From positions 2,520,001-2,552,000 of the forward strand of contig NZ_CP066019.1 in the NCBI RefSeq assembly GCF_016127575.1: DNA of 32,000 nt, given 5' to 3'. Made by a program: the position numbers and the translations under genes. Below the pieces are notes generated by a model. The model was not told the origin of the DNA. It made no database searches and saw nothing but the letters and a program-made list of their open reading frames with translations. This document shows positions 4,871 through 30,988 of the stretch, in pieces (the first letter of the stretch is position 1; each line of letters starts with the position of its first letter). The DNA is from Cupriavidus necator (GTDB lineage: Bacteria > Pseudomonadota > Gammaproteobacteria > Burkholderiales > Burkholderiaceae).

Positions 4871-4921
4871 GGGCAGCCCCGGCCTGGCATGCTGAGCCTT
4901 CGCGCCGAGGCTGCCGGACCT

Positions 4922-6808: not shown

Positions 6809-6817
6809 GGGGTGGGG

Positions 6818-7492: not shown

Positions 7493-7864
7493 GCCTGTCT
7501 CTTCCCGAGCCATGCCGTTGTGCCGCCCGTTGCGCCGGGCACGACGGCGGATTCTGACATATCCGTCCGCACCAAGGACGGCCGCGCGGCCTCCCTCAGG
7601 GTAAACGCCGCCGCCCCCACCCATCGCACAGTCTGCCGCGGTTTCCCATCCCATATTCTGGGGAGGCGCCTGAATCCACCTGCCCCTATGATCCGGCAAA
7701 ACAGCCCAATCAGCCGCAGCCAGCAGTGCGGGCAACAAGACAGGCAAACAAGCGGGAATACGGGGAAGACCACCGTGACACATAAGACAGCCGGCACACC
7801 GGCCGCACGGGAAATCGGGCATGCAAGGGGGGAGCCCGCAGGCGCCATCCCGGCAACGGCCGCG

Positions 7865-8969: not shown

Positions 8970-9043
8970 CGATGCGTTATGCCCGGTCCTGCCGGCACCC
9001 CTGACATCCATCCCGTTCTGCAGCCATGACCGGAGCTTGTTCC

Positions 9044-9832: not shown

Positions 9833-9840
9833 GGCCGGCA

Positions 9841-11226
9841 ATGCGGATCCGCAAGACTGCCCGGGGGATGCGGCGCACCGCCGCCGCACTGGCCGCGCTG
9901 GCGCTGGCCGCGCCCCTGCCGGGGGCGGCAGCCTGGTTCGACGGCGAAGAGAAGCGGCTGGCGGCCGAAGCCGACCGCTTCGTTGCCGACAAAGCCGCCG
10001 AACTCCAGCGCATCCTGCATACGCTGTACATGGAAGGCGAGTGGAATGCCGTGCTCAACTTGAACCTGCTGGGCCTGGCCGCGATCGAGGCCGGCCAGCC
10101 GCGCCTGGCCGGGCGCGCCTTCGACATGGCCGCGGCGCGCATCCTGCGCATCTATGCCGACGACCCCAACGCACAGCAAGCCAAGTCGCTGTGGTCCGCC
10201 GAAAGCGTCAAGGACTGGAAGGGCGAACCGTACGAACGGGCCATGACCTTCTACTACCGCGGCCTGCTCTATGCCAGCGCCGGCGACTACCAGAACGCCC
10301 GCGCAGCCTTCCTGCAGGCCGACATCCAGAACGCGTTCGGGCAATACGAGCGCTATGACGGTGATCAGGGCGGCTTTGCGCTGATGGCCTGGCTGGCGGC
10401 CTGGGCCTCGCAATGCGCCGGCGACAGCGCGCGCGCGGCTGAGCTGGCGGCGCGCGCGGCCAGGCACGCACCGGAGCCGTTCTACGCCCAGCCGCGCGGC
10501 ACGCTGCCGCGGCACCTGAGCGTGTTCGAGCTTGGCATCGGCCCGGAGAAAGTCACGCTGGGCGACACCAGGAGCATCCTCGGCTTCCTGCCGCAAGGCG
10601 CGGCAGGCAGCACGCCGCGCATCGCCTATGCATCGGCGGTGAAGCCGATGGCCTCAGGCACTGCCGCCGACCTCGACCGCGTCGCGCTGACCCGGGGCGG
10701 GCGGCCAATCCAGGGCATCCTGGATGGCAAAGCCGTCTTCAAGGAAAACACCGCGACCATTGCCGATGCCGCGGGAGCGCTGTCCTCGGGCCTGGTGAAT
10801 GCTGCGTTGTCGGGAGCCAACAGTGGCAATGCCGGCCTGGCGCAGGGACTGGGCGCAGCCGGGGCTGCCGGCTCGCTGATCAGCCTTGCCGCGGGGGCGA
10901 TGTCCAGGGCGGCCAATGCCGAGGCCGATACCCGCTACTGGGCATCGCTGCCCAAGATCGTCTACCTGCAAGGCCTGGCTGCGCCGCTGGCATCGCCGGC
11001 CGTGCAGTTCACCCCTGGCGGCGGCGGCAAGCCGCGCTCTGCCCTGCTGCAAAGCCGCCATGGCGAATGCTCGCTGGCCTGGGGCCGTGAATATTCCGCC
11101 TTCGATGCCGAGCATGGCGGCGTGGCCAATCCCTCGCCCTGGCCGGCCGAGCCGGTCGAGTCCGGGCGCGAGCGCGCCAACGCGGTCCTGCGCACCGAAC
11201 TGCTGGCCCTGCCGTTCGGCCAGTAG
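9841..11226 (+). CDS. secreted TPR-like protein (COG3014-like?)
   Basis: 461-aa ORF starting 8 nt after the previous gene. Sec-type signal: MRIRKTARGMRRTAAALAALALAAPLPGAAA. The helical-repeat N-terminal half (AGRAFDMAAARI...YERAMTFYYRGLLYASAGDYQNARAAFLQA) looks TPR-like. Confidence 0.6.
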   Translation: MRIRKTARGMRRTAAALAALALAAPLPGAAAWFDGEEKRLAAEADRFVADKAAELQRILHTLYMEGEWNAVLNLNLLGLAAIEAGQPRLAGRAFDMAAARILRIYADDPNAQQAKSLWSAESVKDWKGEPYERAMTFYYRGLLYASAGDYQNARAAFLQADIQNAFGQYERYDGDQGGFALMAWLAAWASQCAGDSARAAELAARAARHAPEPFYAQPRGTLPRHLSVFELGIGPEKVTLGDTRSILGFLPQGAAGSTPRIAYASAVKPMASGTAADLDRVALTRGGRPIQGILDGKAVFKENTATIADAAGALSSGLVNAALSGANSGNAGLAQGLGAAGAAGSLISLAAGAMSRAANAEADTRYWASLPKIVYLQGLAAPLASPAVQFTPGGGGKPRSALLQSRHGECSLAWGREYSAFDAEHGGVANPSPWPAEPVESGRERANAVLRTELLALPFGQ

Positions 11227-16859: not shown

Positions 16860-17312
16860 TTACTCCAGCACGCGCATCGTCCGCTCGCCGTCCGGTGCCA
16901 ACTGATGCAGCACTTTGCCCTTGAAAACGGTGGCCTTCAGATCGTCCAGCACGTCCTTGGCGCCACCATAAGGGGCGAACACGTCGATCAGGAACGCCTT
17001 GTCGCCCGACTTCCAATCCCCGGGCGCCAATTGGTACGGCGGCATGGCAAACCGCTCGACCACAGCGTCGGAGAGGTAGGCCCAGGTCACGAAGGCTGTG
17101 GGCATTTCACCCCGCATGTACAGCTTGGCCTGCTCCAGGATCAGCGGCGGCATCACGCGCCACTCCAGGTCAGCGAAGAAGCTGTGGCGCGTCGTTGGAT
17201 TGTTCATCATCAGCCAAGACACCGGGCCCAGCAGCGGGATCTTCTTGATCACGCGCTGCGCTTGCTCGGCAGCAAACTTCATCAGCTGTTCGTTGTCGGT
17301 CGGAATAGTCAT
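16860..17312 (-). CDS. RTX toxin-activating lysine acyltransferase (HlyC/CyaC/RtxC family)
   Basis: 150-aa ORF. It aligns by eye with E. coli HlyC. LGPVSWLMMNNPTTRHSF matches LGHVSWLWASSPLHRNW. MPTAFVTWAYLSD matches YPVAYCSWANLSL. GDWKSGDKAFLIDVFAPYGG matches [20 protein letters not shown]. The His and Asp that are catalytic in HlyC appear to be present. Its start overlaps the TolC stop (ATGA). Confidence 0.9.
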   Translation of the reverse strand: MTIPTDNEQLMKFAAEQAQRVIKKIPLLGPVSWLMMNNPTTRHSFFADLEWRVMPPLILEQAKLYMRGEMPTAFVTWAYLSDAVVERFAMPPYQLAPGDWKSGDKAFLIDVFAPYGGAKDVLDDLKATVFKGKVLHQLAPDGERTMRVLE

Positions 17313-18591
17313 TGGATACTTGTCCTGGGTTGTTTCATGCCGGCAGCAGCGGGCATGGCAGGCACTGCCGGTGTTTCCTGCTGCGCATTGTTGGTCAGCA
17401 GCGCATTCACTCCCTGGACATCCGCCTCAGTCAGCGTGCCGGCCGCCGCCTTCAGCCGCATGCCTTGCAGGATAGTGTCGTAGCGTGCCTTTGCGAGATC
17501 ACGCTGCGCCGCAAAGAGTTGCTGCTCGGCATTGAGCACGTCGATGTTCACGCGCGTGCCGATCCGGTAGCCAATTTTGTTGGCATTGACCGAATCCAGG
17601 CTCGACGTGACCGCAGAAGTCAGCGCCTCGACCTGGGACAGGCCACTCGTCACACCACCATAGGCTTGCCGTGCCTGCGTCGCCGCCTGGCGTCGCGCCG
17701 CTTCCAGCTCCGCGCGCGACTTGTACCGATTGGCGATTGCCTCAGTCACGCGCGAGTTGACGGCGCCGCCCTGGTAGATCGGGATCGTCAGCTGCAGCCC
17801 GATGGTGCCGGACTTGACCCGGTTCTCGATGTCCGCGGGCGAGGTCATCGAACCTGAGGTGTAGTTGTTGCCATAGCCAGCCGTGAAGTCCAGTGTCGGC
17901 AGGTGCGCCGCGCGGTTCCTGGACACCTCTTTCTCGGCAACTTCGACCGCTGCCAACTGCGTGCGCACTTGCGGGTTGTTCTCCCGCGCGTGACCCATCC
18001 AGGCATTGACATCCTTCGGCTCGGGACCCGGCAGGGTCACGTCAGCCTTCAGGCCCGCTACAGGCTCGGGCAATGGCCCGACCAGCCGTTCGAGTTCCGC
18101 CTGCTTCGCCTCCTGATCGTTGAGCGCCTGCACCAGCTGCGAGCGCCCAAGGTCGTGGCGGGACTGCGACTCGTATACATCGGTAATGGTCGCCTCGCCC
18201 ACGTCGTAGCGACGCTTGGCAAGCACACGCTGCTGCTCCACTGCCCGCAATTGCGCCCTGGCAACTGTCACGCTGTCGCGCGCGGTCAGCAGATCGAAGT
18301 ACGCCTGCGAGGTGCGCAGGATCAGGTCGCTCTCGGCCTGGGCGAACTGTCCTGGCGATTGCCGTTGCCGTTCAGGTTGATCGAGGGCAGCACGCCGGCG
18401 CGAGCCTGCAGCAGCTTCTCGCGTCCGGCCTCCAGCGCGTAGCGTGATGCCTCGAAGGTTGGGTCGCCCCCCTGCGCCATCCTGTAGACCGACAGCAGGT
18501 CGATGGCGCTGGCCTGGCTCGGGACAAGAGCGCCGACCGCGGCCAGCGCAGCCACAGCAGCGCTGGTCAAATCATGCATGCGCACCATCAC
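17309..18591 (-). pseudogene. tolC: TolC-family outer-membrane channel, apparently internally deleted and frameshifted
   Basis: Two ORFs in different frames. ORF 18591..18322 carries a signal peptide plus DLLSVYRMAQGGDPTFEASRYALEAGREKLLQARAGVLPSINLNGNGNRQ, then runs out of frame to a stop. ORF 18271..17309 carries the rest of TolC. That second frame stays open and TolC-like upstream to about 18349 (QFAQAESDLILRTSQAYFDLLTARDSVTVARAQL). About 40 aa are missing at the junction near 18350-18357. Confidence 0.6.
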
Positions 18592-19925
18592 CGCTCCCGC
18601 AAGGCTTCATCCTTGTAGCGCATCAGCGGCGACAGGAAGTAGGAAATCATGCGGCGTTGGTCCACGCGGATATCCGCGGTCACGCTCATCCCCGGGGTCA
18701 ACGTCCCCTTGCGCCCATTGACTGAGTTCGGCGTGGCCATCGTGTCGAGCTTGATGCGCACAGGATAGATGGGGCCAAGCTTCTGATCATTGATGGCGTC
18801 GGTACCCACCCACTGCACTTCGCCCTCGATATATCCGAAGCGGGTGAAGTCAAAGGTTTCCACCTTGGTAATGACCCGCTGGCCGCGCTTCACGTAGCCG
18901 ATGTCCTTGTTCTGCACCTGAGCATCCACTTCCAGTGCAGTGTTCTCGGGCACCACGATCGCCACCGGCTGCGCCTGGGTCACCACGCCGCCAACGGTAG
19001 TCACCGCCAGTTGCTGGACGATGCCGTCGATCGGTGCGCGCAGCGTCTGCAGGTCACGCCGCATCGTTGCCTTGACCAGCTCCAGCTCGGCCGTGGCAGA
19101 CTTGCGGCTTTCCTCGGCCAGCTCTGCCGCATGCCGTGCGCTGAACTCTGCCACCGCCTGTGCGCGCTGCTGCTGCGCGGCGTTGAGGCCCGCGCCAGCT
19201 TCGGCCAGCCGGTTGGTCTGCAGAGCCAGTTCCTTCCTGAGGTTGATCAGCTCCAGCCGCGTCTCGATCAGGCCGGTTTCGGCGATATGCCCGGTCTTGA
19301 CGAGTTCCTCGCGCATGTCGTTCTTCTTGCTGACAAGCGGCAGGCTGGCGCGGATCTGCTCCAGACTGGCAGCGGCCCCTTCCCGGTCGGCACGCTTGCG
19401 GGCAATTTCAGCGTCGAGCGCCGCCAGCCTGGCGCGTTGTTCGGCCAGCGCGCTGGTGAGCAGCGCCTGCTGCGTCCGGGCGATATCCGCAGGCAAGCCT
19501 TCGACGGCCTGCATGGTGGGCTTGCCGTCGAGAAGCGCAGTCAGCCGTCGCACCCCGGCTACGGCCTCCCATTGATCGCGCTGCAGCCGGTCACGGTCTG
19601 CTGCAGTGGTGGTCGGGTCGAGTTCGACCAGGATGTCGCCAGCCTTGACCTTCTCACCGTCGCGCACATGGATCTCGCGTACGATGCCGGCTTCGAGCGG
19701 CTGCACCACCTTGGACTTGCCCGAGGGAATGACTTTTCCCTGCGCGGAGACCACCACGTCCATTTTCGCCATCGTGGCGTAGACCAGCGCAAGGACGGCC
19801 ATACCGCAGATACTGCCAGCGACGATCCGTGCCATGCGCGCGGGACGGCGGTTGGCGATGCCCATGGCGGCCGTGGCAAAGGCATCGGCTGCCGCTTGCT
19901 GGTCAGGCTTCATCGGCTCAGACAT
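18588..19925 (-). CDS. HlyD-family type I secretion periplasmic adaptor
   Basis: Lies in ORF 18588..19988. The ATG at 19925 gives MSEPMKPDQQ. One TM helix (IVAGSICGMAVLALVYA), a lipoyl-like motif (GKVIPSGKSKVVQPLEAGIVREIHVRDGEKVKAGDILVELD), a long coiled coil, and the C-terminal HlyD signature (GMSVTADIRVDQRRMISYFLSPL). It overlaps the hlyB-like stop by 8 nt. Confidence 0.9.
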   Translation of the reverse strand: MSEPMKPDQQAAADAFATAAMGIANRRPARMARIVAGSICGMAVLALVYATMAKMDVVVSAQGKVIPSGKSKVVQPLEAGIVREIHVRDGEKVKAGDILVELDPTTTAADRDRLQRDQWEAVAGVRRLTALLDGKPTMQAVEGLPADIARTQQALLTSALAEQRARLAALDAEIARKRADREGAAASLEQIRASLPLVSKKNDMREELVKTGHIAETGLIETRLELINLRKELALQTNRLAEAGAGLNAAQQQRAQAVAEFSARHAAELAEESRKSATAELELVKATMRRDLQTLRAPIDGIVQQLAVTTVGGVVTQAQPVAIVVPENTALEVDAQVQNKDIGYVKRGQRVITKVETFDFTRFGYIEGEVQWVGTDAINDQKLGPIYPVRIKLDTMATPNSVNGRKGTLTPGMSVTADIRVDQRRMISYFLSPLMRYKDEALRER

Positions 19926-22113
19926 GAGCGGCTCCCGGCAACGGTTGCACAGGGGCCTTGTGCTTGATAGTGAGGGTTTCCAGCACACGCGACGCCTCGA
20001 ACAAGGCGCGATACTTGCCCTCGCCAGTGATCAGGTCAGTGTGATGGCCTTGCTCGACCAGTTGCCCGCCATCGAGCACCAGGATGCGGTCGGCCAGGCG
20101 CAGCGTGGAGAGGCGGTGCGCGACGATAAAGACGGTGCGGCCCGCACAGATCTTCTCGAGGTTGTCGTGGATGACGCGCTCAGACTCGTAGTCCAGGCTG
20201 GCGGTGGCCTCATCGAGCAGCAGCAGGCGCGGGTTGGTCGCAAGCGCCCGCGCGATGGCGATGCGGGCGCGCTGGCCGCCCGACAGCAGGCTGCCGCGCT
20301 CACCGATCACGGTGTCGTAGCCTTGGGGCAAGGCATTGACAAAATCGTGTGCCCCGGCCAGCTTGGCGGCTGCCATCACGGCCTCCAGCGACAGGCCCGG
20401 ATCGGAGATGGCGATGTTGTCGCGCACCGACATGTTCATCAGCGCGGCGTCCTGCGACACCACGCCTACCTGGCTACGCAGCCAGGCTGTGTCCACCGTC
20501 GCCAGGTCGAGCCCGTCGATCGTGACCGTTCCACCAGTGGGTGAGTAGAGGCGCTGCAACTGGCGGATCAGCGTCGTCTTTCCGGCACCAGAAACGCCGA
20601 CAACGCCCACGACTTCCCCAGCGGGGATGGAAAAGGAGACATCCGACAGCACTTGGGCGCCGTCGGCCTGATAGGCAAAGCTCACCCGGTCGAAGCGGAC
20701 AAAGCCCTGAATCGCTGCCCGTTGGGTCTGGTCCGAAAGCTGGCCCGCCTCGGCCGGCGTATCCATGATGCCGCCCAGCCGCCTGACCGCCACGCGCATC
20801 TGCTGGAATTCCTGCCACAGCGACGAGAGCTTGATGATCGGTGCATTGACCCGGCCCGACAGCATGTTGAAAGCAATCAGCCCGCCCACGGTGAGGTTGC
20901 CGTCGATCACCTGCATGGCACCGACGCCCAGCAGCACCACGGTCAACACCTTGCTGGTCAGATTGATGACCTGGTTGGTCCAGTTGCCGGTATGGCCCGA
21001 TTCGAATGCGGCTACCGCGTAGCGCACCAGCCGGCTTTCCCAGCGGCGCTGCCAGTTGGCTTCAACGGCCTGACCCTTGAGGGTCTCCATCGCGCCGATG
21101 GTCTCCACCAGGAACGCCTGATTGTCGGCGCCCAGTGCGAACTTGTCTTCCAGCTTCTTGCGCAGGATCGGGCTGATCACATACGACGCACCAAAGAAGA
21201 TCGGCAGGAAGCAGATCACGATAATGGTCAGGAGCGGGCTGTAATAGAACATGACCGCCAGGAACACCAGCGCGAAGAACAGGTCCAGCCAGGCGGTCAG
21301 CGCCTGCCCGGTCAGGAAGTTGCGCGCCGTCTCCAGTTCGCGCATCGAAGCCATCACGTCACCGGCGCGGCGCGAGTTGAAGTACGACATCGGCAGGCGC
21401 ATCAGGTGCCGGAACAGGCGCGCGCCCAGTTCGACATCGACGCGATTGGTCGTATGGGTGAGCAGGTACTGGCGCAGGCCATTCAGCATCGCCTCGAACA
21501 GCGCCACGCCAGCCAGGGCCACCAGCATCACGACCAGCGTCGCCTGCGAGCGGTGGGCCAGCACCTTGTCGATCACGACCTGGAAGGCAAGCGGCGTCAC
21601 CAGTGCAAAGAGTTGCACGACGAACGATGCCAGCAAGACTTGGGTGAGTTCGGTTTTGTACTTCTTGATGGCCTGCCAGAACCATGCAAAGCCGAACGCC
21701 GAGGTGCCGGCATTGGCCGTGCCATCGGTCAGGGATGCCACGCTGCGGCCGGCTTCGATCCAGGTATTGGCGAACTCGCCGGCGAACGCCGCCGCTGGCA
21801 CTGCCTGCGGTGGCTGGTCCGGGTCCCGCTGCACGTGGACGACATCGGCATCCACCTTGCCGACCAGCACAACCCGGCCACTGCGGGTCAGGGCCAGCGC
21901 GGGCAATGCTGCGCGACGCAGCTTGTCCACCCCGCCCTCGACCAACCTGGCGTCGAAGCCAAGGTCATCCAGGCCCCACAGCAGCCGGCTGGCGTCAAAG
22001 TCATCACGCACGTCCCAGCGGCGTGCGAGGCCCTCGGGATCGGCCTTGACCTCATGCAGGCGCGCGAATACGGCAAGCATGCCAAGATTGGGCAGTGTTG
22101 GCTTCCGATTCAT
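19918..22113 (-). CDS. type I secretion ABC transporter (HlyB family) with N-terminal C39-like domain lacking the catalytic Cys
   Basis: 731-aa ORF with a six-TM exporter core. Walker A is GVSGAGKTTL, the ABC signature is LSGGQRARIAIARAL, Walker B is LLLLDEATASLD and the H-loop is IVAHRLST. The first ~125 aa (LAVFARLHEVKADPEGL...) resemble the C39-like domain and contain no cysteine. Confidence 0.95.
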   Translation of the reverse strand: MNRKPTLPNLGMLAVFARLHEVKADPEGLARRWDVRDDFDASRLLWGLDDLGFDARLVEGGVDKLRRAALPALALTRSGRVVLVGKVDADVVHVQRDPDQPPQAVPAAAFAGEFANTWIEAGRSVASLTDGTANAGTSAFGFAWFWQAIKKYKTELTQVLLASFVVQLFALVTPLAFQVVIDKVLAHRSQATLVVMLVALAGVALFEAMLNGLRQYLLTHTTNRVDVELGARLFRHLMRLPMSYFNSRRAGDVMASMRELETARNFLTGQALTAWLDLFFALVFLAVMFYYSPLLTIIVICFLPIFFGASYVISPILRKKLEDKFALGADNQAFLVETIGAMETLKGQAVEANWQRRWESRLVRYAVAAFESGHTGNWTNQVINLTSKVLTVVLLGVGAMQVIDGNLTVGGLIAFNMLSGRVNAPIIKLSSLWQEFQQMRVAVRRLGGIMDTPAEAGQLSDQTQRAAIQGFVRFDRVSFAYQADGAQVLSDVSFSIPAGEVVGVVGVSGAGKTTLIRQLQRLYSPTGGTVTIDGLDLATVDTAWLRSQVGVVSQDAALMNMSVRDNIAISDPGLSLEAVMAAAKLAGAHDFVNALPQGYDTVIGERGSLLSGGQRARIAIARALATNPRLLLLDEATASLDYESERVIHDNLEKICAGRTVFIVAHRLSTLRLADRILVLDGGQLVEQGHHTDLITGEGKYRALFEASRVLETLTIKHKAPVQPLPGAAHV

Positions 22114-22277
22114 GGCCGCCCCCGTGCCAGGGCCATCACAGCCCGAAGCAATGCATTCATCGTTCTATCCCATCGAAAAAATCAAGCGCTCCCGGCGGGT
22201 GGCGTGTTTCTCCCCCGCGGGATAGTTTTTATTGCCAGGCTCAGTGACTGCGGGCCTTCATATGCCGAATATCAAGG

Positions 22278-25200
22278 TCATGACGGTTGGCCCATGCCCA
22301 AGTCCACCGCGCTGGCCTGTGCGGCGCGGTCCATCATTTCGGCAAGGGTGTCCTCACGCGGAGGGACAAAGCCGCCAGGGGCCTGAGACCCATCGGCCGT
22401 CGTCAGCAGCTTGTTCCACTGGAGGCAACTCCATTGCACGGCTTCCGCGCTGTGCGGCGGATAGGGACAAGCTGAAGATGGCGTCTCGGCGGTGGCGAGC
22501 AGCTGTGCCACGGCGTCGGCGGCAAAGGCAGCATCGATCGGCTCGTTCGGCGCGATTCCCTGCTGGACCTCTTCCAGGTACAGGGCGAAGCCGGGCAGCG
22601 GCACATCCTTGCCAGCGAACATCACGTCTGCGGCCTCACTCTTGCTGCCATCGGTGTGCGTGACCTCCACCGTGCCGAACACGACGTTGCCATGATCGAG
22701 GTGGGCCTCGCCCTGTCGCTGGAGTGCGATGGAGGCAATGCCAGCCTGATCCAGTGTCTTGTGCTCGGCCTCGCTGAACTCGCCATTGCCATTGACGTCC
22801 TGCACTACCTTGAACTGGCTCCAGGCAGCGTCTTCCTTGCTGATCCTGCCGTCGCCATTGGTGTCGAAGGTGGCCAGCGCCTCAAGGTCTGTCTTCGTGC
22901 CGGGCGCGAAATTGGTCAGGCGCGTCTCTTCCACAATGATCTTGCCGTCGCCGTCGGCATCGAAGCCTAGTACGCCGTCGGTCGCGGCGGCCCATCCGAT
23001 TTGCTCAGGCTGGCCGTCATGATTCGCGTCGGCCCTGACGTTGGATTGATCCGCCGCTAGCAACTCCACGCCGTTGCCATTCAGGTCTATCACGAGGGGC
23101 GTGTAGCCGCCACTTGCATTGGTGCCCTTGTGGGTAGCGTTAATCACCACGTCCATGAATGCCCCCTGAGCATCGGCAATACGGATGGTGAAGGCGTCAG
23201 TACCGGTGTAAGGGTCTCCCGCATGGCTCTCGTACTGCCAGTTGGCATAGCGGCTGACGAGCTCACCTGAGTGTTCAAAGCCATATTCGGTTTCCCGATA
23301 GGTGTTGGCATAGGCGTAACCGTGTTGCGGCGCCTGAACAATCGATATGACAATGGCCGCTGTATCGCCATCTGGATCGTAGGCAATGATCCGGCCCGTT
23401 TCTCTTCGGGGATCATTGGCGGGGACAAGAACCCGATCTGACTCATAGCTTGCCCCCGCGAAAAAGTAGTCGCCATCCATCTGGTCTAGTGCCAGTGGCT
23501 TGAGCATGCCATTCTGATAGTGCGATGGTGTATAAGGCCGCCCGCCGGCATCAAACAGTTGGCCTTGCAAGTTCAGCGACAAGGCCAGTGCTTCGTCATA
23601 GACTGGCTGAAAGACAGGGCCATCACTGTATACATACTGCCCGGCAGAGCCCGCACCTGCACCCGGAGCAGCCTTGCCCACCACGACCGGCGGGCCGACG
23701 TAATACCCAAAGATGGCGCGACCATACTCGACGGACTCGATGATCGGCGCCTTGTTCACATGCTCAACATGCAGGAAGGCCGTGGCCCAGGTCTGCCCTC
23801 CGTAGGGATCGGACACCAGGTACTGAAAGGACGCTTGCCCATAGAAGTCGTGGTCAGGCGTGAACCGGACTTGGCCATCGGCCTGGATCTCGACCGTACC
23901 GTGCTGCGCATTGGCAACCTGGGTGACTGCGAGCGCGTCGCCATCCGGGTCCGCGTCATTGGCAAGAAATTGCGCCGTATTGATGACGAACGGCGTGTTC
24001 TCATAGCCCGAGAAGCCATCATCAACCGCGACCGGTGTCGTGTTGATCTTCTCCAGGTTGATGGTCGTGGTCGCCATGGCAAAGCCGCCTACACCATCCG
24101 AGATGGTGTAGGTGAAGTGGCCTTGTGCACCCGGGTAGCCGCCAAAGCCAGGCTCCGGCAGGAAGGTCACCGAGCCGTCCGCATTCAGTCGCACAGTGCC
24201 GTGCTCGGCCCCGGACACGCCCACAATGCGCAGATCGCCATGCGGGTTGTCGATGTCGAAGTCATCCGCCAACAAGGCCGCCGCGGTCAGCGTAATGGCC
24301 ACGCCCCTGCGTCCGTCCACGATATTGTCATTGGCGATCGGCGCATCATTGACTGGCGCCACGTGAATAGTCGCCGTCGCGGTCGAGACGCCCCCCACGC
24401 CATCGCTCACTTCATACGTGAAACTGGCATCACCAAAGAAATTTGGATCGGGCACAAAACGGATGGTCCCGTCCGGGTTCAGCGACACGGTACCGTGCGT
24501 GGCGCCGTTGACGCGGGTGATGGAAAGCGCCTCCGGTGGGTTGTCCACATCCGTATCATTGGCAAGCAGTGCGGCGACATCTATGGTCAGCGCGGTGTCC
24601 TCGTTGCTCGCAATCACATCGTCGCGCAGCCGCGGAGCATCATTGACGGGAGCCAAGTCAATGTCCACCCGCCCGGTGGTGATGGCGCCGTGCGGGTCCG
24701 ACACGGTGTATTCGAAGCTGGCGGCACCGAAGTAATCCGCTTCCGGGATAAAGGTGACGGCTCCGTCGGCATTCAGACGCACTTCGCCGTGCTGGGCGTT
24801 GCCGACCGCTACCAGCGTGAGCGTGGCTTGCGCATCGTCCACGTCCCGGTCATTGGCAAGCAAGCTGGCCGCGGTGAAGGCCGCTACCTCGTCCTCATTG
24901 CCACGGAAGTCCTCGCCAGTCACGATCGGCGCGTCATTGACCGGCGCCAGATCGACCGTGGCCATCGCCTCGGTATAGCCGCCCGCGCCGTCGTAGACGG
25001 TGTAGAAGAAGGTCGCGGTGCCGAAGAAGTCCTGCTCCGGCACGAAGCGGATCTGTCCTTCGGGGGTCAGCTCGACCGTGCCGTGCTGGCCGTTGCGCAC
25101 CGAGAACACGGTCAGGTCCGAGTGGGGGTTATCCACGTCCCAGTCGTTGGCCAGCAGCGTCGCCTGCTCGATCAGCAGTATGGTGTCCTCGTCGGTGGCG

Positions 25201-28200
25201 ACGGTTTCACCCGCCACCACCGGCACGTCATTGACGGGGCGGATTTCGAGGTTGACGGTAGCGGGCGTCAAGCCGCCGTTACCATCCGACACCCAGTAGA
25301 CAAAGCTGGCCGGCCCGAAGTAATCCTGGTCAGGCAGGAAGCGCACGTTGCCGTGGGCATCGAGGGCCACCAGGCCGTGCGTGGCATTCGAAACACGCAG
25401 GATGCTCAGCACGTCGCCGATGGTGGGCGTATCCACATCGAAATCGTTGGCAAGCAGCTGTCCCGAGGTGAACAGCAGGCCGGTATCTTCATCGAAAGCG
25501 GCCGTTTCACCGGCAGTGACCGGCGCATCATTGACCGGCGCAATGTCCAAGTAGACGCGGCCAGTCGCCTGCAGGCCATACTCATCCTCGACGGTGTAGC
25601 GGAAACGCGCCGGCCCCCAATAGTCTGGGTCAGGGGTGAACACAATGCGCTGGCTGCCGTCGGGCAGCAGTGTCAGGGTCACCGTGCCATTCTCGCCGCC
25701 GTAGACGTTGATCAGGCGCAGTGGCTGGGTCAGGACGTCGCGCGAGGTATCGTTGGCCAGCAGCACTGCCGCATCGATGGCATAGCGCGTGTCCTCGATG
25801 CCTGCGACCTGCTCATCGGCTACGTCCGGCGCGATGATCTGAATATCCTCGCCGTTCGGCCCAGCTGCCACGCGGCCGGGCGTTGTGGTCAGGATCGTAT
25901 CGTCACTTGCGGCATCGTAATTGACACCAACCGCCGGCACTGATCTGATCAGATCCAAAGTGACTTCGACTGGCGACCCGAGCGTTGCCTCGCTGCCAAC
26001 CGGGCGCGTCGCCGGTGGCAAGGCGTTGACTGGCACCTGTACAAAGGGCGGCTGAGCCACAGTCGGTTGCGGCTGGTCCGGCGAATCAACCGTCGTTCCA
26101 AGTTCCACCGGCAGGCGGCTGATGGTGTTGTTGCCGGTTGTATCGATAGCGGGGGCTGGCGCATCAGGCTGCCCGCCACCTTCTGCCGCGTTGGCAACGC
26201 CGGTCACGGCACCCGCCGCGACACCCAGCAGCGCGCCGGTGCCCGCAAACAGGCTGTCGCTGCTCTTGATCCACTGATCGCGGATCGCAGCGAAGGCATC
26301 AGTTGGGCTAGCTGGCGGAGCGCTGGTAACACGGCCGTCCGCCGGGCGCACCGTGTCAGTACGCTGCGCAGGCCTGCCGGGATTTGGGTCCTTCGAGGTC
26401 AGGCGGCTGTCATCCGGCTCGACACGGGTGGCAGTAGCCCGCCCGACCGGGGTCGTGCCCTCGCCATCAGCCACGCGGTCATCGCCAGCGACGATCGCGT
26501 CTTCGGCAAGCGTCTGCTCGTGCTGCTTGTCGCTGGCGGTTTTGATGCGACTGTCGCCTTCGGCAACTTGCATCTCAGCGCTGGCGTCTTCCAAGGCTAC
26601 GCCGCCATGGGTATGGCCAGCTTCGCCCGTGTAATCATGAGTGACGACGGCATTCAGGACCGTCTCGCCGCCTTCCTTCGCGTGCAGCATGCCGGCAAAG
26701 GCATCGAGCCGGCCATCGCCGTCCGTGTCCACAAACGCCACCTGATAGGCGTCGCCGCGCACATCCGCTGTCAGGTGGTGCTCGGTGACCATCATGACGC
26801 TGCCATCGGCGGCGCGCAGGACGGGTGGCGTGCTGGTGAAATCCAGGCTGGCGATACCCCGGTCGAGGAACGATGCGAACTCGCCCTGATCGGTCTGGCC
26901 GTTGCGGTTAACGTCCAGCCAGATGCCCAGGGCGGCAAAGGCCGGGTCGGAAGTGTCCAGCTTGCCGTCGTGGTTGACATCGAGCCATTGCACGCTGTTG
27001 CGGGCATGGGCGGCGGAGGCATCCGGGTCGTTGGTCAGGATCTCGTTCTGCCCGATCCTGCCATCGCCGTTCACATCGATGGAGAGGATGCCCTGGTTGG
27101 CGTTCACCCAGTCCGTCTGCTCGATGTAGCCGTCCAGATCGACGTTCTTGCCGATCCGGCCAGGGTTCACACCTGCAGGCAGTTCCGGCTTCAGGTCGAC
27201 CGTCAGCGCAGTAAAATGCTGGCGGATGCCGTCAGCGTCTGCCTCAGGCATGCCTGCGTCGGCCTTAGCCTCATGCCAATCCGGGCTGTGCAGTTGCAGG
27301 CCAGCTCGCGACCGGTTCTCTTCAATGCTGCCCGTTGCCGGAGCAGTGACGACGCCAGATTCGCGCATGTGGGCGAGCACCGATTCCGCTTCCCAGGCCG
27401 GGACGATGGCAGCGAACGCCTGCTGCATGAACTGCTGCGCAATGGTCGCCTGGCTGGTGTCATAGCGCAAACCAGCGCCATCATAGTAGCGTCTCTGCTC
27501 CTGGCCGTTGTCGTCGATCCACTTGAGATACAGCTGACCGCCGTTATCGTTCAGGCGCGCCCCATCAGGATCGAAGAGATAGCCGATGGTCGGCAGGCGC
27601 TGTGGAATGATGGCGTAAAGTGGGTTGCCGTTGGCATCCACCTGCTGGGCAAGCGACACCTGCAGGGCGTCGATCAGGCTTTGCAGGATGTTGGCAGGCG
27701 TCGCGCCGCCGTCCTCGGCATCGGTGGTCTTGAGCACGTGAATGCTGCCGTCCGGATTCCACACAGCGGTGGCTTCACCTTCTAGCGTCGGAAGATCCTT
27801 TGCGGACAGCATTGAGCCGATCATTGTCACGGCGATAGCCGCGAAGGCAACAGGTGGGCAATAGGAGGTATAGCCTGCCACCGTCATGCCCGCAGCGATG
27901 GTACTCAGTGCCGCCCCGGCAACCTGATACTCATTGCCATCCTCGATGGCCATTACCAGCGTGACAATGCTTGCGACCAGCGCCAGCCCACCAGCAATCT
28001 GCCCTGTCGTCGCAGCGCTATCCAGCAGAGTGCCAGCGGATGCCGACTCAGCCTGGAATGCAACAATTCCTTGTTCCTTGAGCGCGTTGGCGTAGATGGC
28101 TGCCGCCTGGCTGCCGAGGTTGGTACTGGCAGCAGCGATGCCCAGTCCGTTGCCGTCTTGAATGGCGTTGAACAGGTTCAGGCCAGCAGCGAGGGCATTC

Positions 28201-29558
28201 AGTCCGACGCCGACGCCATCGGGCAAAAGTTTGCCGCTGCCGAGGCGATCCAGATTGATCAGCATCGCTGCGCTGGCGGCCACAATCGCCTTCGTGTCGC
28301 CGGATTCGATTGCCTGGATCAGGGACAGCATGCTTTGGACGCTGCCAAGCGCGTCCACAGGGCTTATTGCCTCTGGCACGGGTGTGGGCTGCGAGTCAGG
28401 CCGCGTATCATGCTCGTCGAATGGCAGACCACCGATAGCTGGGCCTGTCAGGTCCAGCTCACCGCCTGCGCTAACAGTGACCATCTCACCATGCAAGCCA
28501 GTAAGGCGGACATTACCGTCGTCGGTTGCCACAGTAGCAAGCACATTGCGCTGCCCATCCACCAGCACTAGTGTGCCGTCTCCGAGAGTGTAGAGGGTAA
28601 CGTCCCTGCCATAGAGATGCTCAATGGTGCCTTGCCAGTGGGCGGCCCGCTCAGCAAAAGCCTGATGTTGAGCGGCAAGCATTTCCTCTGTAGGCGTAGC
28701 TGCATCGGAATGCGTGCCACTATGGTCAGCAAGCTGAATGCGATCCCCACCAAGCCCAGCTAGCGCATTGCCAACACCGATAGCGCCGCGGGCGTCCGAG
28801 AACGGCAACCTATCGAGCAATTGCTTGAATTGATCTTGGACATGACTGCCAATTTCCCGCAAGGTATTGGCTGCATCCACTCCCATGGATTCGAAGAAGC
28901 CTGCCTGGTCGATTCGACCAACAGCATCCATGAAATTCTGCAACTCTTTCCCGGACGCTATGCCCGGTGCCTTTTCCAGCCAATCGCTTGCCATGGCGCG
29001 CACCACCGGATCAGGCGAGGTCGATGCGCCGTACATGAACGCCAGCGTGGCGGTGTTGGCCGCAAGTGCGTCGCTGTAACCACCACCCGTGTCGCGCAGC
29101 ATGCTCCAGAACCGCTCGACTTGTGCCGGGCCACCCATTTTCTCCATCAGGCGGAAGGGGGTATCTAGGGTCCAGGCGGAAGGGGGAAGACCATTGTCTT
29201 TGAAGACCTGGCGGTGAAAGTTCCAGACTTCCCTGCTATCGATGTCACGTGTGACAGGCAGACTACCGTCGATAGTCTGTTGATACAGCGCATCAAGATA
29301 GCCTTTTGCCATGTCCAGCTTAATCTTCTCAACCTGCGCCCCAGTCAACGGCCTCCCCAGGTCCTTGGCAGTGTTGTGCATATACGTCAGCGCTGAGGCG
29401 CCGGCGATACTAGTGGCGTCGGCCACACCACCGGCCCAGCCTGAGTACTTGTATCCGTAGCCTTCGAGCCGGCTATAGACTTGCGACGGAGTAAGCGTGC
29501 CTGCGTTAAGCTGAAACCTAATATCTTTCAACGACCGTGCAGATATCGGATTTGGCAT
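22278..29558 (-). CDS. giant (2426 aa) T1SS substrate: putative acylated pore-forming toxin or adhesin with cadherin-like repeats and DxDxDG calcium modules
   Basis: Single uninterrupted ORF immediately upstream of the hlyB/hlyD-like genes. Hydrophobic Gly/Ala-rich region at aa ~400-590. Seven ~99-aa repeats with the pattern PVNDAP...EDT...LLANDxDVD...HGTV...DG...F.P...YFG.ASF.Y.VSDG.GG. Two modules rich in DVNGDG, DVNHDG, DTDGDG, DADGDG and DTNGDG motifs. No N-terminal signal peptide. Acidic overall, with a 111-aa C-terminal tail. Confidence 0.9.
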   Translation of the reverse strand: MPNPISARSLKDIRFQLNAGTLTPSQVYSRLEGYGYKYSGWAGGVADATSIAGASALTYMHNTAKDLGRPLTGAQVEKIKLDMAKGYLDALYQQTIDGSLPVTRDIDSREVWNFHRQVFKDNGLPPSAWTLDTPFRLMEKMGGPAQVERFWSMLRDTGGGYSDALAANTATLAFMYGASTSPDPVVRAMASDWLEKAPGIASGKELQNFMDAVGRIDQAGFFESMGVDAANTLREIGSHVQDQFKQLLDRLPFSDARGAIGVGNALAGLGGDRIQLADHSGTHSDAATPTEEMLAAQHQAFAERAAHWQGTIEHLYGRDVTLYTLGDGTLVLVDGQRNVLATVATDDGNVRLTGLHGEMVTVSAGGELDLTGPAIGGLPFDEHDTRPDSQPTPVPEAISPVDALGSVQSMLSLIQAIESGDTKAIVAASAAMLINLDRLGSGKLLPDGVGVGLNALAAGLNLFNAIQDGNGLGIAAASTNLGSQAAAIYANALKEQGIVAFQAESASAGTLLDSAATTGQIAGGLALVASIVTLVMAIEDGNEYQVAGAALSTIAAGMTVAGYTSYCPPVAFAAIAVTMIGSMLSAKDLPTLEGEATAVWNPDGSIHVLKTTDAEDGGATPANILQSLIDALQVSLAQQVDANGNPLYAIIPQRLPTIGYLFDPDGARLNDNGGQLYLKWIDDNGQEQRRYYDGAGLRYDTSQATIAQQFMQQAFAAIVPAWEAESVLAHMRESGVVTAPATGSIEENRSRAGLQLHSPDWHEAKADAGMPEADADGIRQHFTALTVDLKPELPAGVNPGRIGKNVDLDGYIEQTDWVNANQGILSIDVNGDGRIGQNEILTNDPDASAAHARNSVQWLDVNHDGKLDTSDPAFAALGIWLDVNRNGQTDQGEFASFLDRGIASLDFTSTPPVLRAADGSVMMVTEHHLTADVRGDAYQVAFVDTDGDGRLDAFAGMLHAKEGGETVLNAVVTHDYTGEAGHTHGGVALEDASAEMQVAEGDSRIKTASDKQHEQTLAEDAIVAGDDRVADGEGTTPVGRATATRVEPDDSRLTSKDPNPGRPAQRTDTVRPADGRVTSAPPASPTDAFAAIRDQWIKSSDSLFAGTGALLGVAAGAVTGVANAAEGGGQPDAPAPAIDTTGNNTISRLPVELGTTVDSPDQPQPTVAQPPFVQVPVNALPPATRPVGSEATLGSPVEVTLDLIRSVPAVGVNYDAASDDTILTTTPGRVAAGPNGEDIQIIAPDVADEQVAGIEDTRYAIDAAVLLANDTSRDVLTQPLRLINVYGGENGTVTLTLLPDGSQRIVFTPDPDYWGPARFRYTVEDEYGLQATGRVYLDIAPVNDAPVTAGETAAFDEDTGLLFTSGQLLANDFDVDTPTIGDVLSILRVSNATHGLVALDAHGNVRFLPDQDYFGPASFVYWVSDGNGGLTPATVNLEIRPVNDVPVVAGETVATDEDTILLIEQATLLANDWDVDNPHSDLTVFSVRNGQHGTVELTPEGQIRFVPEQDFFGTATFFYTVYDGAGGYTEAMATVDLAPVNDAPIVTGEDFRGNEDEVAAFTAASLLANDRDVDDAQATLTLVAVGNAQHGEVRLNADGAVTFIPEADYFGAASFEYTVSDPHGAITTGRVDIDLAPVNDAPRLRDDVIASNEDTALTIDVAALLANDTDVDNPPEALSITRVNGATHGTVSLNPDGTIRFVPDPNFFGDASFTYEVSDGVGGVSTATATIHVAPVNDAPIANDNIVDGRRGVAITLTAAALLADDFDIDNPHGDLRIVGVSGAEHGTVRLNADGSVTFLPEPGFGGYPGAQGHFTYTISDGVGGFAMATTTINLEKINTTPVAVDDGFSGYENTPFVINTAQFLANDADPDGDALAVTQVANAQHGTVEIQADGQVRFTPDHDFYGQASFQYLVSDPYGGQTWATAFLHVEHVNKAPIIESVEYGRAIFGYYVGPPVVVGKAAPGAGAGSAGQYVYSDGPVFQPVYDEALALSLNLQGQLFDAGGRPYTPSHYQNGMLKPLALDQMDGDYFFAGASYESDRVLVPANDPRRETGRIIAYDPDGDTAAIVISIVQAPQHGYAYANTYRETEYGFEHSGELVSRYANWQYESHAGDPYTGTDAFTIRIADAQGAFMDVVINATHKGTNASGGYTPLVIDLNGNGVELLAADQSNVRADANHDGQPEQIGWAAATDGVLGFDADGDGKIIVEETRLTNFAPGTKTDLEALATFDTNGDGRISKEDAAWSQFKVVQDVNGNGEFSEAEHKTLDQAGIASIALQRQGEAHLDHGNVVFGTVEVTHTDGSKSEAADVMFAGKDVPLPGFALYLEEVQQGIAPNEPIDAAFAADAVAQLLATAETPSSACPYPPHSAEAVQWSCLQWNKLLTTADGSQAPGGFVPPREDTLAEMMDRAAQASAVDLGMGQPS
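23745..25826 (-). repeat. seven diverged in-frame tandem repeats of ~297 bp (cadherin-like domains)
   Basis: The reverse complement of the PVNDAP codons (..catcattgac..) recurs at about 24350, 24650, 24938, 25230 and 25530. Degenerate copies lie near 24040 (INTTPV) and 23750 (VNKAP). This corresponds to aa 1245-1938 of the giant ORF. Confidence 0.85.
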
Positions 29559-29570
29559 GAGCAGACCGTC

Positions 29571-30455
29571 TTATCGCTGTTGAAGAGTAGGCGTGGCGGC
29601 GGGCTCGCCGGGCTGCACCCGGAAACCTAGGATCAATTCACGTGCCTTACGTTCGTATTCCATCCACTGACTCAACGTACGGGCATCGTATTGGAGATTC
29701 ACTTCGGCCTTCATTGAGGGATAGAGAGAAAAGCGATGGATGCAGACATTGCGCGGACTTTCCTCGAACGGCTCCCCATTTGCGTTGCATTCAATGAATG
29801 ACACGTCCTTGCCATCATTCGTAAAGAAGAACAGGCGATCCCTCGATACAACAGGACCACTCGGATAACGCACAATCTCTTCGGATCTGTACTCGGCTAG
29901 TCCATAGCGTGTCTCGGGCTGCCGGTCGTATCGCCTATTGCGGAACCTGGCAAGCCCCTTAACTGTGACATGCTGATCGTAGGGATTGCCTAGCACCATC
30001 TTTTCTTTATGTACGTTCAGTGATTGATTGGCGCTCACCCCAATCGGCAGCCATTCCTCTGGCCCCTCCATCGACTTCTGCGCTCGGTAGTAACTTGCCT
30101 CGTTCGCCGCCGTCCTCGGCGCAAAGTCCGGCAGATGCACCATCAGGGGTAGTGAATTGATCTTCGAAGCAAAGGTGCGCACCGGCGCCTTCCAGTTGCG
30201 ACGCTCTGGATCAAATACACTCGGATCTCCTTCGTACTCGGTCACCAAGTGGGTGTAGTTCAGCGGGACGGAAACCGGCACACCGCCAAGGTCACCAATA
30301 ATCGGATCACGTCCCCGTGGAAGATCAAAGGGACCGGCCCATGCAGCCAAGCGCGCATTAATGGCCACCATAGCAACTGCAATGAGCAGCAACATAGGCG
30401 CCGCATACATCAGGCAGCGGCGAACTGATCGTTTCATTGATGAACTATTCAACAT
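29571..30455 (-). CDS. membrane-anchored protein of unknown function, first gene of the T1SS locus
   Basis: 294-aa ORF (an alternative ATG lies at 30437) in a ~47-48% GC stretch where chance ORFs of this length are unlikely. One N-terminal TM/signal-anchor: RRCLMYAAPMLLLIAVAMVAINARLAAWAG. The remainder is hydrophilic with mixed charge. Its stop lies 12 nt before the toxin ATG. I recognise no family. Confidence 0.6.
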   Translation of the reverse strand: MLNSSSMKRSVRRCLMYAAPMLLLIAVAMVAINARLAAWAGPFDLPRGRDPIIGDLGGVPVSVPLNYTHLVTEYEGDPSVFDPERRNWKAPVRTFASKINSLPLMVHLPDFAPRTAANEASYYRAQKSMEGPEEWLPIGVSANQSLNVHKEKMVLGNPYDQHVTVKGLARFRNRRYDRQPETRYGLAEYRSEEIVRYPSGPVVSRDRLFFFTNDGKDVSFIECNANGEPFEESPRNVCIHRFSLYPSMKAEVNLQYDARTLSQWMEYERKARELILGFRVQPGEPAATPTLQQR

Positions 30456-30988
30456 ACTGCAGCCTACTCTTTACTCTCATGATGAGCACATCAGCAGCAC
30501 CCCAAAAATCTGATTGCGGATATCGTCTTTGGCATGTAATCGTTCCTTACTCTCAAAGCTTGAGTGCAACGCACTCACCCAAGGCCACCAGCGAACCGAA
30601 ACTTGGGAGAGCGCTGGAACAGGCCCCTAAGAATCCCGGCGCACGCATCATACCAAATCCACTTTCCGGATCATGCGGGAATATTCCCCAAGAACTACCG
30701 GAAGATTCGGAAAATAAATAATAAGATCAGAAATTAAATTCTCTAATACCAGTCCGGGGATCGAGTCCATGCTGGGTCGCGCCAGGATACCGCGAGCGAT
30801 CCGGCCCACTCCTTTGTTTATGGCAATTGTTTACATTTGCTCTTGACATGTCCTACAGCGCGCTCTTGAACAACTCCAGCGGCACACAGTCGCGATGCTT
30901 GTCGTTCGGCTATATTGCAGCGCCGCCCTCAGAATGGGTCGTGGCCGAGCCTGTGCAGTCGATGCCGGGAATAGCGTTGTCGCGGGCC

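Follow-up and report, generated by a model that had tools for sequence, protein, structure and literature searches.

In this study, six genes on chromosome 2 of Cupriavidus necator H16 were analyzed, which probably form a polymorphic toxin system that acts against bacteria and relies on type I secretion for export. They lie in a 32,000-nt stretch of DNA (contig NZ_CP066019.1, positions 2,520,001 to 2,552,000), which as a whole is called the window here and to which all coordinates refer. An earlier note, made from the sequence of the window, had described six tightly packed genes on the minus strand. Its coordinates, gaps and overlaps agree with the positions of the open reading frames (ORFs), which are co-directional and follow one another, from upstream to downstream, as listed below.

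29571..30455, minus strand: X, 294 amino acids (aa), a candidate immunity protein with an N-terminal membrane anchor and a periplasmic Smlt3025/FrpD-like domain
22278..29558, minus strand: A, the substrate, 2426 aa
19918..22113, minus strand: B, HlyB-type ABC exporter (TIGR01846)
18588..19925, minus strand: D, HlyD-type periplasmic adaptor (TIGR01843)
17309..18591, minus strand: TolC-type outer-membrane channel gene, a pseudogene (TIGR01844 fragments)
16860..17312, minus strand: HlyC-family lysine acyltransferase, 150 aa (PF02794)

X and the substrate gene are separated by 12 nt, and the substrate and exporter genes by 164 nt. The exporter and adaptor genes overlap by 8 nt if the adaptor starts at an ATG that lies 63 nt inside its longest ORF; from this ATG the adaptor has 445 aa, in agreement with orthologues of 445-447 aa. 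X is 100% identical to the hypothetical protein E6A55_30860 of C. necator H16. The substrate corresponds to CAJ97095.1/WP_011617781.1/Q0JYS9, which is annotated "RTX toxin exported protein", has the same length of 2426 aa, and is identical in the first 60 residues.

Module structure of the substrate

The following modules were distinguished in the substrate, from the N-terminus to the C-terminus. Models were predicted with AlphaFold2 (AF2), and SPM stands for self-processing module.

28806..29558, minus strand: N-terminal payload, a Smlt3024-type effector domain (aa 1-251)
28374..28805, minus strand: variable linker between payload and scaffold, from the alignment to relatives (aa 252-395)
27798..28373, minus strand: Ala/Gly-rich helical hydrophobic segment, a candidate membrane-insertion region, from AF2 and hydropathy (aa 396-587)
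27219..27797, minus strand: conserved alpha/beta domain that holds K679, from AF2 and alignment (aa 588-780)
26679..27218, minus strand: internal SPM fold without Asp-Pro, from phmmer and Foldseek (aa 781-960)
25839..26678, minus strand: low-complexity linker with a short hydrophobic stretch at aa ~1111-1116, from sequence and hydropathy (aa 961-1240)
23694..25838, minus strand: seven tandem-95/Cadherin_5 repeats, PF17892 and NF012211 (aa ~1241-1955)
22599..23099, minus strand: C-terminal full-length SPM-like Ca2+-binding module with Thr-Pro at the junction, from phmmer (aa 2154-2320)
22278..22598, minus strand: C-terminal tail, presumed from its position to be the type I secretion signal (aa 2321-2426 and stop)

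The substrate had been described as a cadherin-like protein with DxDxDG motifs and without RTX nonapeptides. No nonapeptide was found here either: the regular expressions GG.G.D and GG.G.[DN] gave 0 matches in 2426 aa, and PF00353 gave no match. The cadherin-like character was borne out by PF17892 and NF012211, each of which matched 7 stretches, with 460 and 468 bits, respectively. The D-x-[DN]-x-[DN]-G motif indeed occurs ten times, and its description can be refined, as the motifs fall within two FrpC-type SPM folds with hidden Markov model scores far above chance. Residues 2154-2320 match the FrpC SPM structure 6sjw over its full length, with the alignment starting at chain residue 1 (phmmer E 6.8e-17), and residues ~781-960 match 6sjw/6sjx (phmmer E ~5e-10; Foldseek 1.2e-5 over 186 columns). 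FrpC undergoes self-cleavage at Asp414-Pro415. The counterparts of this bond are GGYT/PLVIDLNGNG (Thr-Pro) in the C-terminal SPM and F-T/A-L (Thr-Ala) in the internal SPM; in the scaffold relatives examined, the residue ahead of Pro is T, M, K, C, F, Y or P, and Asp in none. Because Asp-Pro is missing, the SPM modules are best taken for units of Ca2+-dependent folding rather than for sites of cleavage.

The AF2 model of aa 395-960 (24 sequences) predicts seven long Ala/Gly-rich helices in aa 395-587 (pLDDT below 50), followed by a confident alpha/beta domain at aa 588-780 and then by the SPM fold. The helical segment (aa 396-587) contains 41 Ala and 22 Gly in 192 aa, shows hydropathy peaks at aa 457, 523-533 and 574-580, and is conserved in scaffold relatives. 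The alpha/beta domain has many near-invariant alignment columns. With this model Foldseek found the FrpC SPM only, and neither a solved relative of the alpha/beta domain nor an RTX acylated or pore-forming domain; Pfam scans of aa 1-400 and 401-1000 likewise gave no match to an RTX N-terminal domain. The C-terminal tail is conserved among Cupriavidus relatives. A likeness of aa 35-137 to the botulinum neurotoxin light chain in phmmer was dropped as not significant (E 0.2-0.8).

The payload and the upstream gene X

Effector homology spans aa 1 to ~215 of the substrate. In the supplement of Bayer-Santos et al. 2019 (PMC6759196; S2 Table, S4 Fig), CAJ97095.1/Q0JYS9 is listed as a homologue of Smlt3024, with E 1e-33 in PSI-BLAST and 1.5e-36 in JACKHMMER. 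A C. oxalaticus orthologue is also included; the locus, the acyltransferase and the scaffold are not discussed there. In that study, periplasmic Smlt3024 slows the growth of Escherichia coli, and Smlt3025 neutralises it (PMC6759196). Smlt3024 was found to resemble the N-terminal domain of many RTX proteins and Smlt3025 to have the topology of FrpD, and it was proposed that FrpC/FrpD may be a type I antibacterial effector-immunity pair. The view of these homologues as RTX-protein N-termini agrees with the HMMER search reported below. TfcB, a solved Stenotrophomonas maltophilia effector with a GH19 fold, was checked as a candidate for Smlt3024 and is not the same protein.

X, which had been taken for an unknown membrane protein, is a homologue of Smlt3025, the solved immunity protein against an antibacterial effector. 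When its AF2 model (pLDDT 76, 17-sequence alignment) was searched against the PDB with Foldseek, the sole strong match was 6PDK, Smlt3025 (E 1e-9, probability 1.00), and the X family profile finds 6pdk_A by sequence as well (E 5.6e-8). The RTX protein P0006, which has only the payload in common with the substrate, is 63% identical to it over aa 1-251, and the gene upstream of P0006 shares 54% identity with X. For a scaffold relative whose payload differs, in contrast, the upstream gene has no relation to X. Since X is a Smlt3025 homologue and the payload is in the published homologue list, part of the locus had already been linked to an effector/immunity family. The earlier statement that this pairing of acylation machinery and substrate could be assigned to no described toxin family stands; the payload and X belong to the Smlt3024/Smlt3025 family.

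Some homologues of X have a lipobox, and two Cys are conserved among them. The Cupriavidus X has an uncleaved membrane anchor and not a lipobox, which suggests that it is placed at the inner membrane rather than at the cell surface. At other loci, the upstream genes encode lipoboxes, signal peptides or membrane anchors, and two that are paired with lipase payloads gave weak Sel1-repeat matches. A further X homologue (P0014, L009:6807-7457; 216 aa, 49% identical, without the N-terminal anchor) was observed in Cupriavidus sp. NPDC089707, ~2.4 kb upstream and on the opposite strand of a scaffold gene with a lipase payload (L009:9000-12534) that has its own Sel1-like upstream gene; P0014 may be an orphan immunity gene. 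In another locus, L001:5259-6662, a cysteine-peptidase-like segment (GTCALTSIANLL) was noticed by eye between RTX blocks, in the C-terminal part of an RTX protein with the H16-type payload.

The placement of X bears on an alternative view of the substrate as a surface adhesin or a contact-dependent toxin filament. In this case the acyl chain would anchor the protein in the outer membrane of the producer, and the cadherin-like stalk would hold out the N-terminal enzyme to neighbouring cells or put it to use in remodelling the matrix or the cell wall. Such a view shares ground with the reading as an antibacterial toxin and differs from it in the role of acylation and in whether the protein is released. 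Repeats of the tandem-95/Cadherin_5 type, of which the substrate has seven, are typical of giant type I secreted adhesins (PMC3034196); FrpD has been proposed to tether FrpC at the cell surface (PMC5233953); and CdiA sets a precedent for a surface-displayed filament. However, the locus contains neither an N-terminal retention module nor partners of the LapG/LapD type, the N-terminus is a toxin domain instead, and the uncleaved anchor of the Cupriavidus X points to the inner membrane. We regard an adhesin or filament as unlikely and favour an antibacterial toxin.

Relatives of the scaffold and their payloads

An exhaustive HMMER search with substrate residues 1-800 returned 369 cluster representatives. 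Most of the best 150 of the 369, from which the groups were drawn, belong either to a payload group or to a scaffold group. Within these 150, members of the payload group match residues 1 to ~215, almost always at the extreme N-terminus of the target (positions ~1-220) and mostly in RTX proteins. The long targets in this group are classical RTX proteins with 4-35 GGxGx[DN] motifs; most of them have an SPM at residue ~230-360, often with a canonical Asp-Pro (e.g. RDPLVLDLDGDG), which is the layout of FrpC. Members of the scaffold group match residues ~400-800, and all those examined (22 of 22) are cadherin-like proteins with 0-1 GGxGx[DN] matches. They are mostly 2000-2900 aa long, a few shorter ones probably being fragments, and their C-terminal SPM-like module is without Asp-Pro wherever the junction motif was found. 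Because the two modules separate in this search, the H16 protein can be described as an RTX-protein payload joined to an RTX-free scaffold.

In the relatives the conserved scaffold starts at residue 5 to ~900, leaving N-terminal extensions of 0-900 aa, and homology to relatives with other payloads begins at aa ~393-404 of the H16 substrate. Pfam scans of these extensions identified NlpC/P60, Peptidase_M23 (three times, once with a peptidoglycan-binding domain), a Tle1-like phospholipase of type VI secretion systems (T6SS; twice), Lipase_3, and SLT with LysM. Such activities are the ones usually seen in interbacterial effectors that act in the periplasm. In close Cupriavidus relatives the N-termini are of the lipase or HExxH type, and the scaffold is 65-92% identical. 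The family thus shows two marks of polymorphic toxin systems, namely variable N-termini on a conserved scaffold and an upstream gene that changes with the payload.

The earlier note had also remarked on a non-classical gene order with the acyltransferase last, and this order recurs in related loci. With OMP for the outer-membrane protein, A-B-D-OMP-HlyC was found in the window, in L003 (a 91%-identical relative with a lipase payload), L013 (a second C. oxalaticus locus), L014 (a Sulfuricella metagenome-assembled genome), L015 (a Limnohabitans contig), and the distant members L016 (M23) and L017 (Tle1-like). The order partner-A-B-D-OMP-HlyC, or the visible part of it, is kept at every locus with its downstream side in view. 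The hosts of the scaffold systems are soil and freshwater Betaproteobacteria. A word-indexed protein search found six relatives and missed a 2456-aa orthologue that is 71% identical over the full length, probably because that index lacks very long proteins, so no measure of rarity was taken from its count; a scan of species-representative genomes with two narrow peptide patterns found 3 loci, which is an undercount.

Two further features were observed among these loci. A small gene for a GNAT-family acetyltransferase lies between the substrate and exporter genes at L016:10220-10708 and L014:4700-5125, and both loci also have the HlyC gene at the end; in H16 the 164-nt gap takes this place. The locus L004:3903-8993 is degraded: the substrate breaks off at ~aa 1130 and continues in frame with the final ~50 residues of TolC. 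With this fusion B, D and most of tolC have been lost; the HlyC gene is still present, with a Tn3-family transposase gene beside it.

The acyltransferase and its acceptor

The 150-aa ORF had been assigned to the HlyC family, and it passed the profile of this family clearly, with 111.1 bits against a cut-off of 25 (PF02794, profile positions 2-124 of 127). The ApxC structure 4whn also matches the protein (E 2e-9). The catalytic dyad is His23/Asp93 in HlyC and His24/Asp93 in ApxC. The counterpart of the catalytic Asp is Asp110 ('LIDVFAP'), which is invariant in the acyltransferase clade. In an ungapped alignment the position of the catalytic His is taken by Thr41, and His43 ('TRH'), two residues on, hardly varies within the clade; the His/Asp dyad would be restored by a loop insertion of 2 residues. 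Members of the clade are common in Cupriavidus, at 70-96% identity, as well as in freshwater Betaproteobacteria, at ~50-60%, and the gene is the last of the operon in the relatives examined. The acyltransferase goes with the scaffold and not with the payload: the L001 locus, which encodes an RTX protein with the H16-type payload, has an OMP gene without a HlyC gene after it.

No acceptor Lys conserved across the scaffold family was found in alignments of 40 core regions, 43 C-terminal regions and 19 full-length proteins, in which Lys in at least 60% of the sequences was set as the threshold; nor did these alignments contain a conserved Gly-Lys acylation site. Only K679 and one column in the cadherin repeats, which is Arg in the H16 protein, reached 60% Lys. 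K679 lies in 'LYLKW' and is Lys in 12 of the 19 full-length relatives; judged by the alignment, it is the best acyl-acceptor candidate, albeit a weak one. As no Lys is conserved over the family, the acceptor may vary by lineage.

Lys is scarce in these proteins, at 0.4-1.9% in 18 of the 19 full-length sequences (the substrate and 18 relatives), with 9 Lys in the 2006 aa of P0172. The scarcity may stem from selection against off-target acylation or cross-linking, or simply from compositional bias. In many relatives, the C-terminal SPM-like module is preceded by several Gly in a row, one of the pairs K-C, K-K, C-C or C-F, and a Pro ('GGGGGKCP', 'GGGGGGCCP') (P0150, P0151, P0156, P0163, P0165, P0174, P0216, P0218 and L014). 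The H16 substrate instead reads HKGTNASGGYTP at this junction (aa ~2140-2155, window ~23094-23141), which is the site of the scissile Asp in FrpC. Cys is very rare elsewhere in the scaffold proteins, and the Gly-Lys context of the junction in these relatives is similar to known HlyA acylation sites.

The HlyC-type enzyme invites comparison with the operons hlyCABD, cyaCABDE and apxCABD. They share with the H16 locus the HlyC-family acyltransferase, the HlyB-type exporter, the HlyD-type adaptor, a hydrophobic segment N-terminal to Ca2+-binding modules, and a presumed C-terminal secretion signal. However, the H16 order is X-A-B-D-OMP-C instead of C-A-B-D, there are no GGxGxD repeats, no match to an RTX N-terminal domain and no conserved Gly-Lys site, and the H16-type payloads are antibacterial enzymes with immunity genes. 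These likenesses could indicate a divergent acylated pore-forming cytolysin similar to HlyA or CyaA, which would act against eukaryotic cells (amoebae, fungi or plants) and have cadherin and SPM modules in place of the RTX block. The family of the acyltransferase, the helical hydrophobic segment upstream of the Ca2+-binding modules as in RTX cytolysins, and the dedicated HlyB/HlyD/TolC set would all fit this view, and an enzymatic N-terminus followed by a hydrophobic segment and a Ca2+-binding region is reminiscent of CyaA. By contrast, the relatives carry peptidoglycan hydrolases and antibacterial lipases of the T6SS type as payloads, X has a homologue in an antibacterial immunity protein, and the partner genes are exported and change with the payload. 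The protein also lacks matches to PF00353 and to the RTX N-terminal domain, Foldseek found no solved RTX acylated domain, and the hosts live in soil and freshwater. A cytolysin is thus very improbable. The RTX-cytolysin-like frame that was implied when haemolysis and cytotoxicity assays were suggested for this locus is probably wrong, given the Smlt3024-type payload and the hydrolases and lipases of the relatives, and a toxin against other bacteria is the preferred reading.

Export genes and the tolC lesion

The identities proposed for the export genes were confirmed. The exporter scored 819 bits against TIGR01846 (type_I_sec_HlyB; cut-off 726), with both ABC_membrane and ABC_tran found, and the adaptor scored 368 bits against TIGR01843 (type_I_hlyD), above the cut-off. 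The TolC-type gene, which had been described as disrupted, is split over two frames: the N-terminal fragment covers positions 2-56 of TIGR01844 and the C-terminal fragment positions 131-412 (240 bits). A DNA alignment to intact orthologues of 475 aa and 471 aa, in which one 148-column gap appears, defines the lesion as a single clean 148-bp deletion that shifts the frame, with its junction near 18349/18350 (window 18322-18360). The intact orthologues are 93% identical to the H16 gene at the DNA level, and such a clean deletion against this identity suggests that the inactivation is recent in H16, a laboratory strain in wide use. As the dedicated channel gene is broken in H16, the system must be either crippled or reliant on another TolC.

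This lesion raises the question of whether the H16 locus is a decaying, non-functional remnant without a current role, which would concern this one strain and not the nature of the system. Besides the frameshifting deletion, the degraded relative L004 next to a Tn3 transposase would agree with decay, as would the absence of the scaffold from most species-representative genomes, in the scan with two narrow patterns that undercounts. However, the other five ORFs are intact, including a reading frame of 7.3 kb, the acyltransferase retains the invariant residues of its clade, and type I systems are able to use an unlinked TolC. Decay in H16 is therefore a serious but still rather doubtful explanation, and we continue to treat the locus as a toxin system.

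Flanking and intergenic regions

One further feature was delimited upstream of the operon.

30456..30988, minus strand: AT-rich intergenic region upstream of X, probable operon promoter region (GC drop)

In this region G+C falls to ~0.54, compared with ~0.70 in the left-hand flank; the G+C of the locus is ~0.54-0.66 and thus also below that of the left-flank genes (~0.70). One weak sigma-70-like site lies at 30718-30745, and such sites are no more frequent here than expected by chance. Promoter and terminator scans over the locus likewise gave counts equal to chance expectation, and no convincing attenuator was found in the 164-nt gap between A and B. The neighbours of the locus are ordinary genes of the chromosome: on one side it is flanked by genes for an amidase and a Bug-family binding protein, and on the other by a gene for a flavodoxin-like quinone reductase. 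The PADLOC models for anti-phage defence gave 0 matches for X, the payload and the acyltransferase. Elsewhere in the window, a 1202-aa ORF (4889-8497, plus strand) has a C-terminal LpoB domain (peptidoglycan-synthase activator) as its sole Pfam match, and its first ~1040 residues are without assignment. The ORFs 8936-9889 (minus strand, 317 aa) and 9841-11226 (plus strand, 461 aa) have no Pfam match at E <= 1e-5; since the DNA here has 70% G+C, they are possibly spurious genes.

Discussion

The scaffold with interchangeable N-termini, the partner gene that follows the payload, and the homology of payload and X to a known effector-immunity pair indicate that this locus is, with fair probability, a polymorphic antibacterial toxin system exported by type I secretion. 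Its targets are likely other bacteria and not eukaryotic cells. No description of a type I polymorphic toxin that is HlyC-linked and RTX-free was found in the literature searched, which omits most subscription journals, and no functionally characterised system with the H16 operon layout was found in the same literature. Published work already covers the payload and its immunity partner; the scaffold, the conserved operon and the link to acylation appear to be undescribed.

Four known systems help to place the locus. Similar to Smlt3024/Smlt3025, which belongs to a bacteria-killing type IV system of S. maltophilia (PMC6759196), the partner gene adjoins the effector domain, X is a Smlt3025 homologue in sequence and fold, and aa 1 to ~200 of the substrate are in the published list of Smlt3024 homologues. 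Unlike that pair, the H16 effector forms the N-terminal 10% of a 2426-aa protein, the immunity gene lies upstream, a lysine acyltransferase is part of the operon, and export is of type I, not type IV. The XVIPCD signal gave no match in Pfam scans of the substrate, with a library not confirmed to hold the model, and the C-terminus consists of the SPM-like module and the tail. Given that genes of a type I system, and none for type IV secretion, were seen in the locus, we do not file the substrate as a type IV effector.

FrpC/FrpD, the 'clip-and-link' system of Neisseria meningitidis, is also type I secreted and has SPM folds, and its upstream exported partner, a lipoprotein, belongs, like X, to the FrpD/Smlt3025 fold class and binds or matches the N-terminal domain. 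Furthermore, many RTX proteins with the H16-type payload show the FrpC-like layout with Asp-Pro at the start of the SPM. The H16 protein differs in having no RTX nonapeptides and in adding cadherin-like repeats, the helical and alpha/beta core, and an acyltransferase; we know of no acyltransferase linked to frpDC. Since both of its SPMs are without Asp-Pro, self-cleavage is not expected.

A HlyC-family acyltransferase that acts on a non-RTX protein has a precedent in CdiC, which lipidates class IV CdiA and makes it bind more strongly to the outer membrane of the target (Halvorsen et al. 2021; PMC8510554). There, too, an enzyme of this family was adopted for a polymorphic toxin against bacteria that is non-RTX and has an immunity gene. 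In contrast to the H16 system, CdiA is type V secreted, its toxin is C-terminal, and the immunity gene is downstream; moreover, the acylated Lys of CdiA lies in a defined receptor-binding domain and is kept wherever cdiC is present, whereas no such Lys was found in the H16 family. Finally, MARTX and CyaA are large type I substrates in which enzymatic cargo is combined with hydrophobic or repeat regions thought to translocate it, and they have the linked acyltransferases RtxC and CyaC. Their targets are eukaryotic, however; they have RTX or MARTX repeats and no immunity genes, and the cysteine protease domain that releases MARTX cargo has no counterpart in the H16 system.

From these comparisons a possible mechanism can be outlined. 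The acyltransferase would fatty-acylate Lys of the pro-toxin in the cytoplasm, using acyl-acyl carrier protein, and the HlyB/HlyD/TolC-type system would export the protein with the C-terminus first. Outside the cell, Ca2+-driven folding of the SPM-like and cadherin-like modules would replace that of RTX beta-rolls. The acyl chain and the hydrophobic helices would then engage the outer membrane of a neighbouring Gram-negative cell, so that the N-terminal payload would come to lie in the target periplasm and inhibit growth, while periplasmic X would protect sibling cells. Acylation thus probably helps the toxin to engage the target membrane. Only tentatively do we go further and suggest that the acylated giant protein, with its helical and alpha/beta core, carries interchangeable payloads (peptidoglycan hydrolases, lipases, or those of the Smlt3024 type) across the outer membrane of rivals, with the non-cleaving SPM and cadherin modules serving as a Ca2+-driven export ratchet.

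Several points weigh against an antibacterial toxin delivered in this way. The case for the locus is built from sequence and predicted structures, and the homology to Smlt3024 comes from the iterative searches of PMC6759196 itself, at ~20% identity. The His of the acyltransferase is two residues off its ApxC/HlyC position in the ungapped alignment, and the family has no conserved acceptor Lys. Neither SPM carries the Asp-Pro bond for payload release, and judging from the sequence the H16 payload may perhaps not be released at all. The H16 locus has no intact TolC-family channel gene. Furthermore, we are aware of no published way for a protein exported by a type I system to pass through the outer membrane of the bacterium under attack.

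The delivery of toxins between bacteria is mostly ascribed to bacteriocins and to secretion of types IV, V, VI and VII. Known antibacterial cases of type I secretion are microcins, a few RTX bacteriocins and the Cdz system of Caulobacter. A widespread Betaproteobacterial family with interchangeable payloads that degrade cell walls and membranes would add a class of polymorphic toxins that uses the simplest secretion system. If the proposal is correct, this family would be the bacteria-targeting counterpart of CyaA and MARTX, and a second, independent recruitment of HlyC-type lipidation to antibacterial warfare after CdiC. The locus also offers a new type of substrate for toxin-activating acyltransferases and a natural case of type I export without RTX repeats, and the suggestion made in 2019 that FrpC/FrpD is an effector-immunity pair becomes testable in a model organism that is genetically tractable and non-pathogenic. 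C. necator H16 serves as a chassis in industry and for 'power-to-food', and its 'RTX-like' gene has been marked for a review of safety. The evidence for this gene points to an antibacterial system with a broken channel gene, and not to a cytolysin.

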